Positions 7,780 through 15,163 of a DNA stretch of 22,166 bases are shown piece by piece. The notes under the pieces were generated by a model, which was not told the origin of the DNA, made no database searches, and was given only the letters and a program-made list of their open reading frames with translations. Within the stretch, counting starts at the first letter, position 1. Each line of letters opens with the position of its first letter. Source of the stretch: a virus; UHGV virus genome UHGV-0117806. One strand, given 5' to 3'. Both the position numbers and the translations under genes were made by a program.

Positions 7780-8739
7780 TCACTCCGGCGCATCCAGCCA
7801 ATTATTAATGGCGTCTATTATTAAGTGTATATCTTCATGGTGATACAGATAAACGTCCAGTTTTTTGGCTGCTTGTCTGGCGTGAGGGGTAAACTCGCTG
7901 TTGCTGACTACTATTGCGAGGGAGCAATCGTAGAACTGTTTCGCGGAAAATGCTTCCTGAATAGCTTTGTTGCCTACTTTAGACTGGTAGTGTTTGCACT
8001 GAACAGCCATTCGAACTTCTCTATAGGTTACAAGGATATCCAGACCGTGATCGCCGCTGCCCTTAGTTACTTGGGTGTCGGATCCATACTTCATAAACTC
8101 CCCAGCGACAAAATGCTCATATTCGTGCCCGGTCAGTAGCGAAGTGTACTCAGGTAATTCAGGTTCTGGTGTATTGTCTACCACCGTCATAATGTGATTT
8201 ATTGCGCAGCGATCAAATTGTTCAGGCAACTGGAATTTAAAGTAAACTGGCCGCCCCCAGGCATTCTTGTCCTCCGACTCTGCCAACCAAAGGTTGTTGA
8301 GCCGGCCTGTGTTCTCTTCGATCCAATCGTAAACTTTCTCTTTTACTACCTTGTCATAAAAGTAGTCTACTTCATCAAACCACTTGTCAAAGTTCCAGAC
8401 CCCGTATTCATCCTGTGTTGTGAGTGTTTTTTCTTTTCTTTTCAAAGTGGTGAGATGCATTTCATAGAACTGAGGTAAAACTTTTATGAGTAGGTATGAA
8501 GTGAAGGCGCTTTGAATAAGCTTCTCTTTGGCTGACTTATAGTAAAAATCGTTACGATCGAACGCGCCGTTTTGCGTGATGTAGCTTCTAACTTCCATAT
8601 TTCGAAAAATGATATTGCGTGTTTTTTCCCATGCTTCATGTAGATCATTTTCAGCAACGAAGCTCATGACTTTCTGATAATGAGACTCCAAGCCCTCCCG
8701 GGCCTTAGTTTCTTCCGTTTTGAAAAGATTACCAAACAT
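7780..8739 (-). CDS. Mrr-like PD-(D/E)xK restriction-endonuclease-fold protein with unrecognised ~200-aa N-terminal domain
   Basis: C-terminal ~110 aa match the Mrr_cat pattern: GHEYEHFVAGEF…GSGDHGLDILV…VQCKHY…AIVVSNSEFTPHARQAA. N-terminal domain has no motif I recognise. Convergent with 7046-7744. Confidence 0.85.
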   Translation of the reverse strand: MFGNLFKTEETKAREGLESHYQKVMSFVAENDLHEAWEKTRNIIFRNMEVRSYITQNGAFDRNDFYYKSAKEKLIQSAFTSYLLIKVLPQFYEMHLTTLKRKEKTLTTQDEYGVWNFDKWFDEVDYFYDKVVKEKVYDWIEENTGRLNNLWLAESEDKNAWGRPVYFKFQLPEQFDRCAINHIMTVVDNTPEPELPEYTSLLTGHEYEHFVAGEFMKYGSDTQVTKGSGDHGLDILVTYREVRMAVQCKHYQSKVGNKAIQEAFSAKQFYDCSLAIVVSNSEFTPHARQAAKKLDVYLYHHEDIHLIIDAINNWLDAPE

Positions 8740-8912: not shown

Positions 8913-8930
8913 GAAAACAACTTGTTTAAA
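8913..8930 (+). promoter_or_regulatory. palindromic operator-like motif (AAAACAA-C-TTGTTTAAA) 18 nt upstream of ATG 8948
   Basis: Member of the recurring AAAACAA-N(1-3)-TTGTTT family (see findings). Confidence 0.5.
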
Positions 8931-10096: not shown

Positions 10097-10130
10097 GAAA
10101 TAATAACACCAACAAAAAAACAATTTGTTT
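10097..10130 (+). promoter_or_regulatory. conserved promoter-operator module (TGaAATAAT extended -10-like box + AAACAATTTGTTT palindrome 10118-10130)
   Basis: gaaATAATAACACCAACAAaaAAACAATTTGTTT, 12 nt upstream of ATG 10143. Confidence 0.55.
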
Positions 10131-10142
10131 AATGGTGCAATC

Positions 10143-11828
10143 ATGAATACAGCCCTTTCCATCATTGACGCTATCACTCCAAACACTGATATCGACTACC
10201 GGCAGGAAATGAACGTTATCCACGAAATTGTGGCCGAGTGCGAGAAAGAGATCGCATTCATGCATCAGGTTCACGACTTCGTTTATGGCGACGAACGCCA
10301 CAGCATGATTAACCGCCTGCTGCGACTCAACCACCGGCCGGATGACGAGCGCACACGCTTTAACAGAGCCTGGTTGGACAAAGTCGACCTGGAATGGGTG
10401 AAACAGAACATCTGGGCTGAATACTGGAAGAAGGTCACGGATATGACCAACGTTCTGCTGATCATGCCAGCATCCCGCCGCGACGAGTGGCGTGAACAGT
10501 TTATCGAGGGCAAGCAGGAAACGATCAAGACTGACAGAACTGGCTATCAAATGAAGGTTAAAGAGTTCGTTGGTGTACCTGAGTTCAAAGCAGAAACGGT
10601 CATACCAACGATGCTTAATTTGCTGAATGACAGGCACAAATATCTCTCTGAGCGCGTGTATGGCTTGTTTAAGGCGTTGAGTCCTGCTCACAAGACCAAT
10701 AAGACGAACGGCTTCAGCGAGCGTCTGATCATCGCCGACTGCATTTCCGATTTCTGGCGGGACAGCGTCAGCGTTAACTACCGGAAAGAGGATTACATAG
10801 ACGACCTGCGCGTCATGTTGCATTTCTTTGCACACAAAGAATTTATCACCATCAACCGCACGGCCGAGATGCTGTCAGCTGCGTATCGAGCAAATGACTG
10901 CCAGACCGGCGACTGGATGAATGTCGACGGAAACCTGATGCGTGTGAAGATGTTTAAGAACGGCAACGTTCACTTTGAAATACATCCTGACGTAGCCTGG
11001 AAGCTGAATGAGGTGCTGGCTTACAGTATGCCTGCAGCAATCCCGGCGCCATGCCGTACTGCACCCAAAACACGGGCACCAAAAGAGTTCGGGTTAATCC
11101 AGAAGACGATCTCCGAGCCGGTTCGTACCGCGCTGCGCAACGGGCGATTCAGCAAAGATAAAGGCGTCTGGTACTTCTCTGATTCCAACCTCCAGAAGTC
11201 GCAGGTGGAAGAGCTTGAGCGCACACTGAACTTCATTGGCGGCGTGCAGGAGAAAAGGCACTGGCAGTTCCCGTATGAGATCGGCCATACGCTCAATACG
11301 ATTGTGGCCACCGGCTTAATACCGGATACAAAATCACACCAGTTCTACCCTACCCCGCGTTTGATAGCGGAGTACGTTGCCAGAGCCATCGAGCTGAAGC
11401 AAGGTGAGAAGCTGCTGGAGCCTGAAGCCGGGCGCGGAGATCTGCTGGCCTGCATCGACGCCAATCCGGAAGACGTTACCTGCATAGAAGTCGCACCTCT
11501 CTTCGCTGATATCCTGCTTGGCAAGGGGTACACAAATACGGTCTGCTGCGACTTCATGAAGTGGTCTGAGGTCAACGCAGGTTATCAGTTCGACAAAATC
11601 GTTATGAACCCGTCCTACTCTCTTGACCGTCACAGAGAGCATACGCTGGCCGCGCTGGAGCATCTTAAAGTCGGCGGGCGACTGGTGGCTGTATTGCCGG
11701 GTGATGCGCCAGTTCTGAACTGGATGTCGCTGGATAATTACGTTTATGCCAAAGGGAAGTCGTTTACTGACGAGTTTGAAGACACCGGAATCACTGTCAG
11801 CGTATACGTTTTCAAACGTGTAAAATGA
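10143..11828 (+). CDS. putative orphan DNA amino-methyltransferase with ~380-aa unrecognised N-terminal region (561 aa)
   Basis: C-terminal motifs in gamma-class order: FYPTP (motif X), LEPEAGRGDLL (motif I, SAM-binding), VCCDF, IVMNPSYS (motif IV variant NPSY). ATG 10143 in frame with track ORF 10125..11828. Confidence 0.8.
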   Translation: MNTALSIIDAITPNTDIDYRQEMNVIHEIVAECEKEIAFMHQVHDFVYGDERHSMINRLLRLNHRPDDERTRFNRAWLDKVDLEWVKQNIWAEYWKKVTDMTNVLLIMPASRRDEWREQFIEGKQETIKTDRTGYQMKVKEFVGVPEFKAETVIPTMLNLLNDRHKYLSERVYGLFKALSPAHKTNKTNGFSERLIIADCISDFWRDSVSVNYRKEDYIDDLRVMLHFFAHKEFITINRTAEMLSAAYRANDCQTGDWMNVDGNLMRVKMFKNGNVHFEIHPDVAWKLNEVLAYSMPAAIPAPCRTAPKTRAPKEFGLIQKTISEPVRTALRNGRFSKDKGVWYFSDSNLQKSQVEELERTLNFIGGVQEKRHWQFPYEIGHTLNTIVATGLIPDTKSHQFYPTPRLIAEYVARAIELKQGEKLLEPEAGRGDLLACIDANPEDVTCIEVAPLFADILLGKGYTNTVCCDFMKWSEVNAGYQFDKIVMNPSYSLDRHREHTLAALEHLKVGGRLVAVLPGDAPVLNWMSLDNYVYAKGKSFTDEFEDTGITVSVYVFKRVK

Positions 11829-13112: not shown

Positions 13113-13811
13113 ATGAAAAATATCCTACTGGCATCATTGTTGGTGGCATCGCCGGCTGTATTTGCAGCCAGCTTTGACTGCCAAAAGGCTTCGGCAGAAA
13201 TCGAACACAAAATCTGCGATAACGAACGCCTGTCAAAATTAGACGAACAACTTAGCTCTACCTATTCCAACGCACTCAAAGCAAACCCGGGGGACGCAGA
13301 CGCCTTAAAGACGGTTCAGCGTCAATGGGTAAGTATGCGTGGAAAACTCACTGGTGATAAGGCTCTGGAGTTGGCTTATCTAATCCAAATTAATGGCCTC
13401 AAGAGTTTGGATGGTTCGGCCAGCACTGCGGTGGTCAATGAGACACCAAAGCCTGTGCAGAAACAGCCTGAAGTTCAGGAAAAGACAAGCAAGGCAGACA
13501 CAAAGCAGGCTGAGAGCGGTAAAAAGCTAACTCTGGAGTCATTCCGAGCTAAGTATATTGAAGTTGACGGTGAATACTACAGCACGACATCCCTTCCCAG
13601 AGGGAGTTCGTTCTTGTTCACCTGCGCAAGTCGTATCGCAGATGACCAGGTGAATATTTGGAAGAAGGTGGCAGCCAAAGAGGGCAAGATCGATCTCTTC
13701 TTTGAACTTGAGAATCGAATACATACCGCAATGCTGAATGCCAATTTTCAGAAGCTGAATAGTGATTTAACTAAAACAGGCATTTGCGATCTGATTACCG
13801 CTGTTCCGTAA
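13113..13811 (+). CDS. secreted DUF1311 / LprI-like protein (232 aa)
   Basis: GGAG 13104-13107 then ATG 13113; signal peptide MKNILLASLLVASPAVFA; DUF1311-type pattern C-x2-A-x4-E-x2-IC…L-x2-LD…QRQWV. Confidence 0.7.
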   Translation: MKNILLASLLVASPAVFAASFDCQKASAEIEHKICDNERLSKLDEQLSSTYSNALKANPGDADALKTVQRQWVSMRGKLTGDKALELAYLIQINGLKSLDGSASTAVVNETPKPVQKQPEVQEKTSKADTKQAESGKKLTLESFRAKYIEVDGEYYSTTSLPRGSSFLFTCASRIADDQVNIWKKVAAKEGKIDLFFELENRIHTAMLNANFQKLNSDLTKTGICDLITAVP

Positions 13812-13818
13812 GCCAGAT

Positions 13819-13840
13819 AAGGCCACTAGTTGTGGCCTTA
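13819..13840. terminator. bidirectional hairpin AAGGCCAC-tagtt-GTGGCCTT
   Basis: Sits between convergent genes 13113..13811 (+) and 13867..14070 (-); immediately followed by palindrome AAACAATTTGTTT (13840-13852). Confidence 0.55.
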
Positions 13841-13866
13841 AACAATTTGTTTTATAGATGGTGAAA

Positions 13867-14070
13867 TTAATAGAACCCCAGGCGAACCAAATCCATTGGG
13901 CAGAATAGACCTTCCACACCTTCGATAGACACGCAGTCAGAGCGGCGTAATTGTTCTTCTGATTTGCCTTCTCCGCAGATTTCCTTGATGACTCCCGTTG
14001 CACCATTCGTTGCCACCATCACTCGGCTGCCGGTAGTGATAGCGTTACGGTTGCGATCATAGGTCTTCAT
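13867..14070 (-). CDS. hypothetical small protein (67 aa)
   Basis: Strong SD on minus strand (AAGGAGG, 5 nt before ATG at 14070). Confidence 0.65.
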
Positions 14071-14154
14071 CGTTTCCTCCTTTCACATGGGTCAAATCAG
14101 GTTTCAAAAATTGCCGTTTTCCATGTAGGTGCGATTTGCAAAATCTCAAGTGCC

Positions 14155-14169
14155 AAAACAAATTGTTTT
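14155..14169. promoter_or_regulatory. perfect 15-bp palindrome AAAACAAATTGTTTT in divergent intergenic region
   Basis: Same motif family as upstream of the small-gene array; about 85 nt from minus-strand ATG 14070 and 89 nt from plus-strand ATG 14258. Confidence 0.5.
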
Positions 14170-14223
14170 CACCATCTTGTTATTCAATTAACCCGTAAAG
14201 TTGACCAGTACCGTAATAAATAA

Positions 14224-14243
14224 TACTGTTTATATGTACAGTA
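14224..14243 (+). promoter_or_regulatory. LexA (SOS) box overlapping a sigma70-like promoter
   Basis: TACTGTTTATATGTACAGTA matches CTGT-N8-ACAG. TTGACC (14201-14206) + 17-bp spacer + TACTGT places the box over the -10; 15 nt upstream of ATG 14258. Confidence 0.65.
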
Positions 14244-14257
14244 TTGCGAGGCGAGCA

Positions 14258-14524
14258 ATGGGCAGCAAGAATTCTAAATATGTGATCGTCTATAGGGGCG
14301 AAGCACTCAAGCACCTAATACCCGGACAGTTCGTTTTCTTCCAACGTGAAAAAGAATACGGTGGGGGGTTCTGGCTTGGTAAAACGCATGAGGATGGGTT
14401 CGAATTTGTGCTGGAGCAACCCACTTCACTAAGTTACGGGCTTGCGTATCTGATCAGATTGTCGAGTGTCGAAGCCAGGTATATGGAGTTTGTTGATGAC
14501 ATAGACGACTTCAAACTCACCTAG
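14258..14524 (+). CDS. hypothetical SOS-box-associated small protein (88 aa)
   Basis: GAGG 14247-14250 then ATG 14258; track ORF 14201..14524 begins at a TTG that is the putative -35. Confidence 0.6.
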   Translation: MGSKNSKYVIVYRGEALKHLIPGQFVFFQREKEYGGGFWLGKTHEDGFEFVLEQPTSLSYGLAYLIRLSSVEARYMEFVDDIDDFKLT

Positions 14525-14564
14525 TCATCCCTTAAACATTTTGTTTTCTACCTTTTGTTATTTG

Positions 14565-14597
14565 AGATAATAACACAAATAAGAAAACAAATTGTTT
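14565..14597 (+). promoter_or_regulatory. conserved promoter-operator module (TGaGATAAT + AAAACAAATTGTTT)
   Basis: gaGATAATAACACAAATAAGAAAACAAATTGTTT then AAGGAG and ATG 14610; a second degenerate palindrome AAACATTTTGTTT lies at 14534-14546. Confidence 0.55.
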
Positions 14598-14609
14598 AAG
14601 GAGTTGATC

Positions 14610-14846
14610 ATGTTCGGAACCGCAAAAGACATCATCGAAAAGCTGGAGAACTACCCAGAAGATGAGCCGCTGCTGATGGTGATGTGGCACAAGGAAGATG
14701 TAGGTGAAGTGCGACCAGACCTGACTGACGAACAGTGCGTTCAGGTTTTGCGAAAAATCAAAGAGTGCCATGACACCAGCGTCGGCGTGAATTGGGATGT
14801 CATTTCTGACACGGCCAACATACTGTTTCCAAAGGAGAAGGCATGA
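14610..14846 (+). CDS. hypothetical small acidic protein (78 aa)
   Basis: AAGGAG 14598-14603 then ATG 14610; stop overlaps next start. Confidence 0.7.
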   Translation: MFGTAKDIIEKLENYPEDEPLLMVMWHKEDVGEVRPDLTDEQCVQVLRKIKECHDTSVGVNWDVISDTANILFPKEKA

Positions 14847-15163
14847 TGCTGAAAATCACCGAATCGTATAAGACGGCGGTGATCAGCACCGCCCACGTAA
14901 CGGCAGCGGATTCAGAACGGCTACCCATTGCCTGCTTCGACCCACTTACTGATCGCGGGTTGAATTGGGTACACGGTACACAGTACGGCTGGATTGTTCG
15001 TGCTGGAATGCGAGGGAATGACTGGAAGGAAGAACTGCGTGAGTACGGCATTTCCCAAGAGGCGATCTCCAACATACAGACCATACTGGATGACGGCTTT
15101 GACGTGGTTCACTTCGATTGCGACGCCGAGCTGGTGGATGGGCTACCTGCATGGGAATGGTGA
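14843..15163 (+). CDS. hypothetical acidic protein (106 aa), coupled
   Basis: AAAGGAGAAGGC then ATG 14843 overlapping upstream stop (ATGA). Confidence 0.7.
   Translation: MMLKITESYKTAVISTAHVTAADSERLPIACFDPLTDRGLNWVHGTQYGWIVRAGMRGNDWKEELREYGISQEAISNIQTILDDGFDVVHFDCDAELVDGLPAWEW

Follow-up and report, generated by a model that had tools for sequence, protein, structure and literature searches.

A conserved LexA box upstream of a portable 88-aa gene in an SSU5-like phage-plasmid and unrelated Enterobacterales prophages

Introduction

The closest described systems in which small phage genes are switched by the host repressor LexA are found in phage 186, in the Gifsy prophages and in the phage-plasmid N15. 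The Gifsy antirepressors can act in trans between prophages, and one of them is encoded by a phage that can do without it (PMC3121763). LexA control of the site preceding Gifsy-2 dinI has been shown by Lemire et al. (PMC3121763). Likewise, the phage-plasmid N15 encodes AntC, an antirepressor under LexA regulation (cited in PMC11652158 and PMC3121763), and a 39-fold induction by ciprofloxacin is documented for the SSU5-like phage-plasmid Cyrano (PMC9928086). The locus considered here is an 88-amino-acid (88-aa) gene with a LexA-type box in its predicted promoter, located on a stretch of 22,166 nucleotides from the virus genome UHGV-0117806 (this whole stretch is referred to as the window in the following). 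The window region is 99.7–99.8% identical to non-mobilizable E. coli plasmids of about 110 kb and shows 87% identity to Salmonella phage SSU5 over 77% of its length; hence, the window is from a phage-plasmid of the SSU5/pHCM2 type.

Phage-plasmids of this type, some of them with antibiotic resistance genes, are frequent in Salmonella, Klebsiella, Enterobacter and E. coli. Induction by DNA-damaging antibiotics is documented for some (PMC9600943, PMC9928086). A literature search gave, in the titles, abstracts and papers that it covered, no description of how SSU5/pHCM2-type phage-plasmids sense damage, nor one of the 88-aa family or of a LexA site in SSU5-type elements.

Results

LexA Box and Promoter of the 88-aa Gene

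The 20-mer TACTGTTTATATGTACAGTA, as read directly from the sequence, occupies positions 14224–14243 of the window. An earlier note on this DNA had pointed it out as a CTGT-N8-ACAG box and as the only one in the window, and both statements hold. The loose pattern is found once in the window at an expectation of 0.33, and at least once in 31 of 100 shuffled versions; taken alone, it is weak evidence. In the full 20-mer, two letters depart from the LexA consensus TACTGTATATATATACAGTA; sites with up to three mismatches to this consensus did not occur in any of 100 shuffles of the window. For scoring with a LexA weight matrix, a check suggested together with the claim, 22 E. coli SOS boxes were used as training sites. 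On this matrix, the box reaches 25.8 bits, a score that places it among the four best of these 22 boxes, and exceeds every one of 500 window shuffles (maximum 21.1 bits). The second-best score in the window amounts to 12.1 bits, leaving 14224–14243 as its sole LexA-type box. Outside the training set, the matrix assigns 27.4 bits to the annotated LexA site of phage 186 p95 and 24.5 bits to the site before Gifsy-2 dinI, and it also recovers two N15 sites, one before the umuD-like gene and one in the antC region. As a 20-bp palindrome of the TACTG(TA)5CAGTA type that has the CTGT-N8-ACAG arrangement and scores like proven sites, 14224–14243 is, judged by its letters, an E. coli-type LexA operator.

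The box is placed such that its left half-site represents the predicted -10 hexamer TACTGT (14224–14229, + strand), which follows the -35 hexamer TTGACC (14201–14206, + strand) after a 17-nt spacer. It ends 14 nt ahead of the start codon ATG 14258, and a Shine-Dalgarno motif GAGG (14248–14251, + strand), in a purine-rich block kept in relatives, lies 6 nt before this ATG. The 88-aa open reading frame (ORF) extends over 14258–14524 on the + strand. Both this frame and the TTGACC-17-TACTGT promoter with the box over its -10 had been proposed before and are found at exactly these coordinates, in a design that is conserved. A simple sigma-70 consensus scan did not call the promoter, because TACTGT matches TATAAT at only three of six positions; consequently, the promoter call is based on conservation and on the annotated promoter p95 of phage 186, which is built in the same way. 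Further upstream, a conserved GTTATT element (14179–14184, + strand), the columns of which are invariant or nearly invariant over 17 sequences, lies between the -35 hexamer and the 15-bp palindrome AAAACAAATTGTTTT (14155–14169; like the LexA box, not assigned to a strand).

Conservation of the Box With the Gene

Homologous loci were collected from viral contigs (35 loci, 47–100% protein identity) and from a set with a single genome for each species (30 usable loci, 38–95%), giving a set of 65 loci with 448,817 bp in which boxes of at least 17 bits were counted, the upstream zone being defined as the 650 nt before the homolog. Hosts include Kluyvera, Pantoea, Serratia, Rahnella, Enterobacter, Citrobacter, Dryocola and Symbiopectobacterium. 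Such a box precedes the homolog in 60 of the 65 loci, down to a protein identity of 38%, and 61 of the 62 boxes found fall in the upstream zones, which make up 9% of the sequence. The distance from box start to start codon is 28–43 nt in most loci, 76 nt in one and 245–600 nt in the rest, where small ORFs intervene and form an operon. Moreover, the box persists over 57 distinct contexts with flanks that are unrelated between groups (at least ten unrelated flanking contexts), and a 5-of-6 match to the -35 consensus is present 16–18 nt before the box in 31 of the 57 distinct promoter contexts. Among the SSU5-like and P22-like copies, the -35 sequence TTGAC, the ACTG/CAGT half-sites and the spacing are invariant, with drift in the spacer and the box centre. 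The box is also present at loci without ydfZ, the divergently transcribed neighbor in the window (loci L016 and L019, P22-like, P2-like and L031–L037 groups). The proposal of the earlier note that the small gene is wired to the host SOS response is supported by the operator over the -10 and by this retention of the box in unrelated promoter contexts. LexA control of the 88-aa gene is very probable and, within the limits of what sequence analysis can prove, may be regarded as established.

Two of the loci lacking a box are affected by their upstream sequence. At L061, just 162 nt are available upstream of the match, and at L006 (2970–3000, IMGVR_UViG_2718218135_000001) the LexA box is cut by a rearrangement breakpoint: unrelated sequence takes the place of the left half-site, of the -35 hexamer and of all that lies upstream, and ...TTATATGTACAGTA is left before an intact gene. 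The same in-box breakpoint is found in the E. coli S56 plasmid NZ_CP010244 (hit H77). A weakened box, CACTGTTTATATGTGCAGTA, with two substitutions and 17.8 bits, occurs at position 2967 of L003–L005, the protein of which is 100% identical to that of the window, and may represent a partly derepressed allele. Homologs with boxes of the enterobacterial type are also present on the contigs L041, L051 and L067, the labels of which read Capnocytophaga gingivalis, Micromonospora sp. and Paenarthrobacter aurescens, respectively; these labels probably reflect contaminated assemblies. P2/186-like SOS operons with a family member show two LexA boxes at an offset of 15 bp, for example of 27.1 and 18.1 bits, where the window has one (L043 at 3431 and 3446, L071 at 2935 and 2950, L020 at 2400 and 2415). 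Such offset double boxes are reminiscent of colicin promoters.

Mobility of the Promoter-Operator-Gene Unit

The TTGACC/TACTGT cassette recurs in the ea region next to xis/int of the P22-like Salmonella phages SE1 and 29485, the copy of phage 29485 retaining the upstream palindrome too. In a group of prophages of about 40 kb, the unit is located directly before the small terminase gene and bears a TTGACG-17-TACTGT promoter, and in P2/186-like phages (Cartapus, L022 and others) the family is found after replication gene A inside a LexA-controlled operon. The latter begins with an ORF of 60–75 aa that is similar to the N-terminal half of 186 Tum, which is the antirepressor part (BLASTP E 3e-4, Tum residues 14–42; hhalign E 6e-5 between two subtypes) and is followed, often after a DinI homolog, by the present family. 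In complete E. coli genomes, the cassette is rare, being present in 13 of 5426 and every time on plasmids. In the complete SSU5 genome (103 kb), the box before SSU5_103, the counterpart of the 88-aa gene, reaches 27.1 bits and has no second strong LexA site beside it, the next best score being 12.1 bits. From these comparisons, promoter, operator and gene emerge as a portable unit ('moron') of SSU5-like, P22-like, P2/186-like and other Enterobacterales prophages.

The Tum-N-like ORFs are annotated as hypothetical in L071 (2995–3183, Cartapus gp44) and L022 (2642–2869, phrog_1993), and these first ORFs are likely unannotated antirepressors. In L022, an unannotated 432-aa ORF follows the family member.

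The 88-aa Protein Family

The gene product, small and mildly acidic (isoelectric point 5.3), is annotated as hypothetical protein (WP_023135689.1; SSU5_103 in SSU5) and matches phrog_2100, a family annotated without function, at E 8.9e-38, with residues 1–84 aligned to profile positions 1–84 of 85. An exhaustive profile search of 1.84 billion representatives resulted in 102 hits, all of them short proteins and none connecting the family to a known one; where a source is named, it is a member of the Enterobacterales or one of their phages, except for a few oddly labelled contigs. Nothing significant was obtained from Pfam, NCBIfam and PADLOC (best PADLOC match E 0.015, 13 bits), a profile search of the PDB by sequence gave no match at E up to 10, and no fold relative of the predicted structure was found in the PDB. 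This predicted structure comprises four beta strands and one helix in a compact core, followed by a variable linker and a conserved C-terminal tail. In 41 sequences, 16 residues are invariant, within the motifs VVYRGE, VFFQR and GGGxWLG.

The tail, D-D-[F/L]-x-L-x, is conserved and appears to be flexible. Column entropy is 0.17 bits at L87 and 1.1–1.2 bits at D84 and F85, compared to 2.3–3.2 bits in the linker, and the mean predicted local distance difference test score is about 57–65 over the last ~20 residues and 90–95 in the core. Two tail classes can be distinguished, D-[D/N/E]-F-x-L-[T/V/E/Q/R] in SSU5-like, P22-like and other members, and [D/N]-[N/Q]-L-[S/P/T]-L-F (class B) in Pantoea and related members, with endings such as NNLSLF, DQLPLF and NFPLF; some family members read MDFDDDF. 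The window protein ends with DDFKLT, which is shared by all SSU5-like members and lacks a terminal Phe. The second class resembles the beta-clamp-binding motif QL[SD]LF, and the MDFDDDF members resemble the acidic tip of E. coli SSB, MDFDDDIPF, the motifs in both comparisons being short.

Several assignments were considered and rejected. The DUF2829/Tad2 label that UniRef attaches to member P0085 was reproduced neither by a match to the Pfam model nor by a Tad2-like fold. Homology to the DinI family was not found, BLASTP giving no match to Gifsy-2 DinI, Cartapus DinI or the C-terminal half of Tum and Pfam no hit, and comparisons with GftA, IrsA, Tum, orf97 and the N15 AntC candidate were all empty. 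Neither homology nor fold evidence chooses among the roles of SOS modulator, toxin, mutagenesis factor and anti-defence factor named in the earlier note, a list that does not include the LexA-controlled antirepressor, classically the role of such genes.

Palindrome Regulon and Neighboring Genes

The palindrome at 14155–14169 had been described as a perfect copy of a regulon palindrome and is indeed one of 12 sites of the AAACAA-N-TTGTTT type in the window, compared to about 0.7 expected (positions 8915, 10118, 13840, 14156, 14534, 14585, 16152, 17732, 18223, 19121, 19871 and 20356). SSU5 has 14 such palindromes, including sites before terminase (terS), parA and ant, and Cyrano has 11. They belong to two positional classes, either lying between a GATAAT -10 and the ribosome-binding site or overlapping a -35 and then followed by TTTTC..TGTTATT; TGTTATT also follows the palindrome at 14534, as the GTTATT element follows that at 14155–14169. 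The whole set looks like the operators of a global phage-plasmid repressor. The copy upstream of the 88-aa gene is centred about 75 bp before the predicted transcription start, is nearly invariant in SSU5-like relatives and is kept where ydfZ is absent (L016, L019), likely adding a second layer of control to the gene.

A search for the palindrome-binding protein gave no identification among the candidates. SSU5_116 was rejected, showing only a sub-threshold helix-turn-helix match and not being annotated in the closest relative of the window, and SSU5_121 was rejected as FljA-like. The latter, annotated as 'transcriptional repressor' (L078, 2898–3344), belongs to the FljA family (PF03614, E 1.4e-80), FljA being the repressor of phase-1 flagellin, and is not a repressor of the CI or LexA type. 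By the annotation of the closest relative, the window also encodes a restriction endonuclease (7780–8739, - strand) and a class I S-adenosylmethionine-dependent methyltransferase (10125–11828, + strand; DUF4942 in some records), with a palindrome operator just ahead of the methyltransferase start.

On the other side of the shared 187-bp intergenic region, ydfZ is transcribed divergently. Downstream, the 88-aa gene precedes DUF1380-type and DUF5983 genes, the former starting with ATG 14610. Two palindrome operators (14534–14546 and 14585–14597, not assigned to a strand) flank the GATAAT -10 of this next gene. Being 51 bp apart and bracketing the putative promoter of the DUF1380-type gene, they are arranged in a way that suggests cooperative repression, and the pair at 14534–14597 could also block read-through from the LexA promoter. 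A plus-strand terminator-like site was not found in 13800–14900 and thus not between the 88-aa gene and 14534–14597, making read-through possible; LexA-dependent transcripts may reach the DUF1380-type and DUF5983 genes unless stopped at the operators 14534/14585.

Discussion

Possible Function of the 88-aa Protein

The best overall explanation for these findings, and a narrowly probable one, is a LexA-switched portable gene for a host-directed SOS accessory factor. The analysis shows the site, its strength, its conservation and the mobility of the cassette; occupancy by LexA and induction by DNA damage are what we infer. In the undamaged cell, a dimer of host LexA on 14224–14243 would cover the -10 and keep RNA polymerase off. 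DNA damage would activate RecA and lead to self-cleavage of LexA, upon which the 88-aa gene and, possibly by read-through, the downstream genes would be transcribed. The protein would then bind a target that all these hosts share, most likely one of their replication, repair or SOS proteins. In this way it would be an accessory factor of the SOS response comparable to DinI and not an antirepressor specific for the element's own repressor. Taken by itself, this host-directed function, including the class of target that we infer, is a tentative assignment falling just short of being probable.

The host-directed role is favoured because phages that differ entirely in their immunity systems share a strongly conserved core, because P2/186-like operons hold the family in addition to a Tum-N-like gene, and because it is also found in P22-like phages, the C2 repressors of which are RecA-cleavable. 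In addition, an own LexA promoter permits expression in SOS-stressed lysogens, prophage derepressed or not, which likewise speaks for it. Several points weigh against this assignment. A homology or fold match pointing to any host target was not obtained. A LexA-like or S24-type self-cleaving repressor is not annotated in SSU5, and a sole LexA site in such a genome fits an antirepressor at least as well. Moreover, Gifsy-type antirepressors act on non-cognate repressors (PMC3121763), so that co-occurrence with a Tum-N-like gene is not decisive. The upstream palindrome implies a second regulator, the tail motif is short with its two classes differing at the last residue, and the matrix is based on sites taken as background knowledge, though it recovers independent known sites.

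A more specific version of the host-directed role, in which the C-terminal tail mimics a host docking peptide (beta-clamp QL[SD]LF or SSB tip MDFDDDIPF) and arrests or redirects a replication-repair hub on LexA cleavage, is speculative and decidedly improbable. If true, the family would be a new class of SOS-induced phage effector, with a DNA-damage-timed takeover function in many Enterobacterales prophages and in SSU5/pHCM2-type phage-plasmids.

Rather unlikely, albeit the foremost alternative, is a LexA-controlled trans-acting antirepressor or inducer analogous to 186 Tum, Gifsy GfoA/GftA and N15 AntC, which would bind the lysogeny regulator, possibly the binder of AAACAA-N-TTGTTT, start lytic growth and provide the damage sensing of SSU5/pHCM2-type elements. 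Such a role would be in line with the single strong LexA site of SSU5, with the inducibility of SSU5-like phage-plasmids by mitomycin C or ciprofloxacin (PMC9600943, PMC9928086) and with a genome in which no S24-type self-cleaving repressor is annotated and SSU5_121 is FljA-like. The small, mildly acidic protein is encoded outside any immunity region, and its LexA box doubles as -10 exactly as at 186 p95. Furthermore, all characterised small LexA-controlled genes of such design in enteric temperate phages encode an antirepressor or a DinI homolog, and antirepressors can cross-react and can reside in phages not needing them (PMC3121763). However, hhalign gives probabilities of only 0.1% (GftA), 1.2% (Tum) and 0.05% (AntC candidate), and BLASTP finds nothing. 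In P2/186-like operons, the Tum-N-like gene already stands upstream, in the position of the antirepressor, and the conservation of the core across unrelated repressors argues for one common target. The occurrence in P22-like phages, with their RecA-cleavable C2 repressors, speaks against an antirepressor as well, and the upstream palindrome would place it under the regulator that it inactivates. Induction of Cyrano without a family member weakens the antirepressor proposal and goes no further, since Cyrano and SSU5 share a coverage of just 65% at 81% identity (PMC9928086).

A function in phage-phage conflict, with the SOS-induced protein serving in superinfection exclusion or defence at a time when phage release from neighbours is likely or, as an anti-defence factor, guarding the element's own replicating DNA upon induction, is unlikely. 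It is suggested by genome position: in P2/186-like phages, the family lies within the LexA operon downstream of gene A, the corresponding 186 operon carries orf97, the expression of which blocks 186 infection (record annotation), and the 432-aa ORF succeeds the family member in L022. In the window, the genes that follow, DUF1380-type and DUF5983, are of kinds typically met in the leading regions of plasmids, and the own LexA promoter lets expression precede, or occur without, prophage derepression. Yet this positional evidence is circumstantial, and the PADLOC search produced no significant match. Finally, that the LexA-like palindrome is a chance or decayed site, or serves ydfZ, is most improbable despite the expectation for the loose pattern and the divergent start of ydfZ from the same intergenic region, as the full-site score was not reached in the 500 shuffles, the box is kept with the homolog in nearly all loci, including those without ydfZ, and its distance to the start codon of ydfZ is 154 bp, versus 14 nt to that of the 88-aa gene.

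Returning to the LexA-switched gene with a host-directed product, the small family is noteworthy for having no fold relative in the PDB and for being almost always LexA-controlled in unrelated prophage backgrounds, and this near-constant control puts it forward as a possible addition to the phage-borne SOS regulon beside DinI homologs and antirepressors. As the single LexA entry point of the SSU5 genome, the cassette is also the obvious first target in dissecting the damage-sensing circuit. Interest would rise if the tail were found to dock on a replication-repair hub, or if the protein turned out to be the damage sensor of SSU5/pHCM2-type phage-plasmids.

Comparison With Known Systems

The regulatory design as such is already known from 186 p95-tum, Gifsy dinI-antirepressor and N15 antC, and by sequence comparison the protein belongs to none of those families. 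Likeness is closest to the 186 SOS operon (p95, tum, orf97), for which the record puts the -10 at 29044–29049 and the LexA site at 29044–29063, the box forming the -10 in both systems. That operon also drives a small acidic protein outside the immunity region, and in Cartapus and L022 the present family holds the corresponding LexA-operon position downstream of gene A. In contrast to 186, the family has no sequence relation to Tum or orf97 and joins the Tum-N-like ORF rather than replacing it.

Similarly, GfoA, GfhA and GftA of Gifsy-1, -2 and -3 are small, under direct LexA control and encoded away from the repressor, sometimes together with dinI (PMC3121763); the Gifsy operon order is dinI-antirepressor-irsA, and in Cartapus the present family comes immediately after DinI. 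However, the 73-aa ORF found in place of gftA is matched by hhalign with a probability of 0.1%, and the ORF after the Cartapus copy is not IrsA-like. Moreover, the present core is predicted to be mostly beta sheet and is far more conserved across phage types than GfoA, GftA and FsoA (PMC3121763).

N15 shares the phage-plasmid lifestyle and a LexA box before a small ORF. In its genome (L082), a 21.7-bit box at 39562 precedes an unannotated ORF of 75–79 aa (39592–39831) between genes 47 and 48, presumably antC. This AntC candidate gives an hhalign probability of 0.05%, and N15 possesses a LexA-family CB repressor and a second box before the umuD-like gene, whereas SSU5 holds only one LexA box. 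Cyrano (OV696614) is without the 88-aa family and has a LexA box of 25.9 bits before the umuD-like gene CYRAN_98 (position 89275, L080) as well as one of 22.5 bits before CYRAN_44, adjoining the putative repressor CYRAN_45 (position 41044, L079). A universal need of the family for SOS induction is weakened by Cyrano; a role specific to SSU5/pHCM2 is untouched. Lastly, the DinI-type SOS modulators of prophages are likewise LexA-controlled, have about 80 aa, occur in many prophages and are found in the same operons as the present family, and for both, the proposed target is a conserved one of the host and not a phage repressor.

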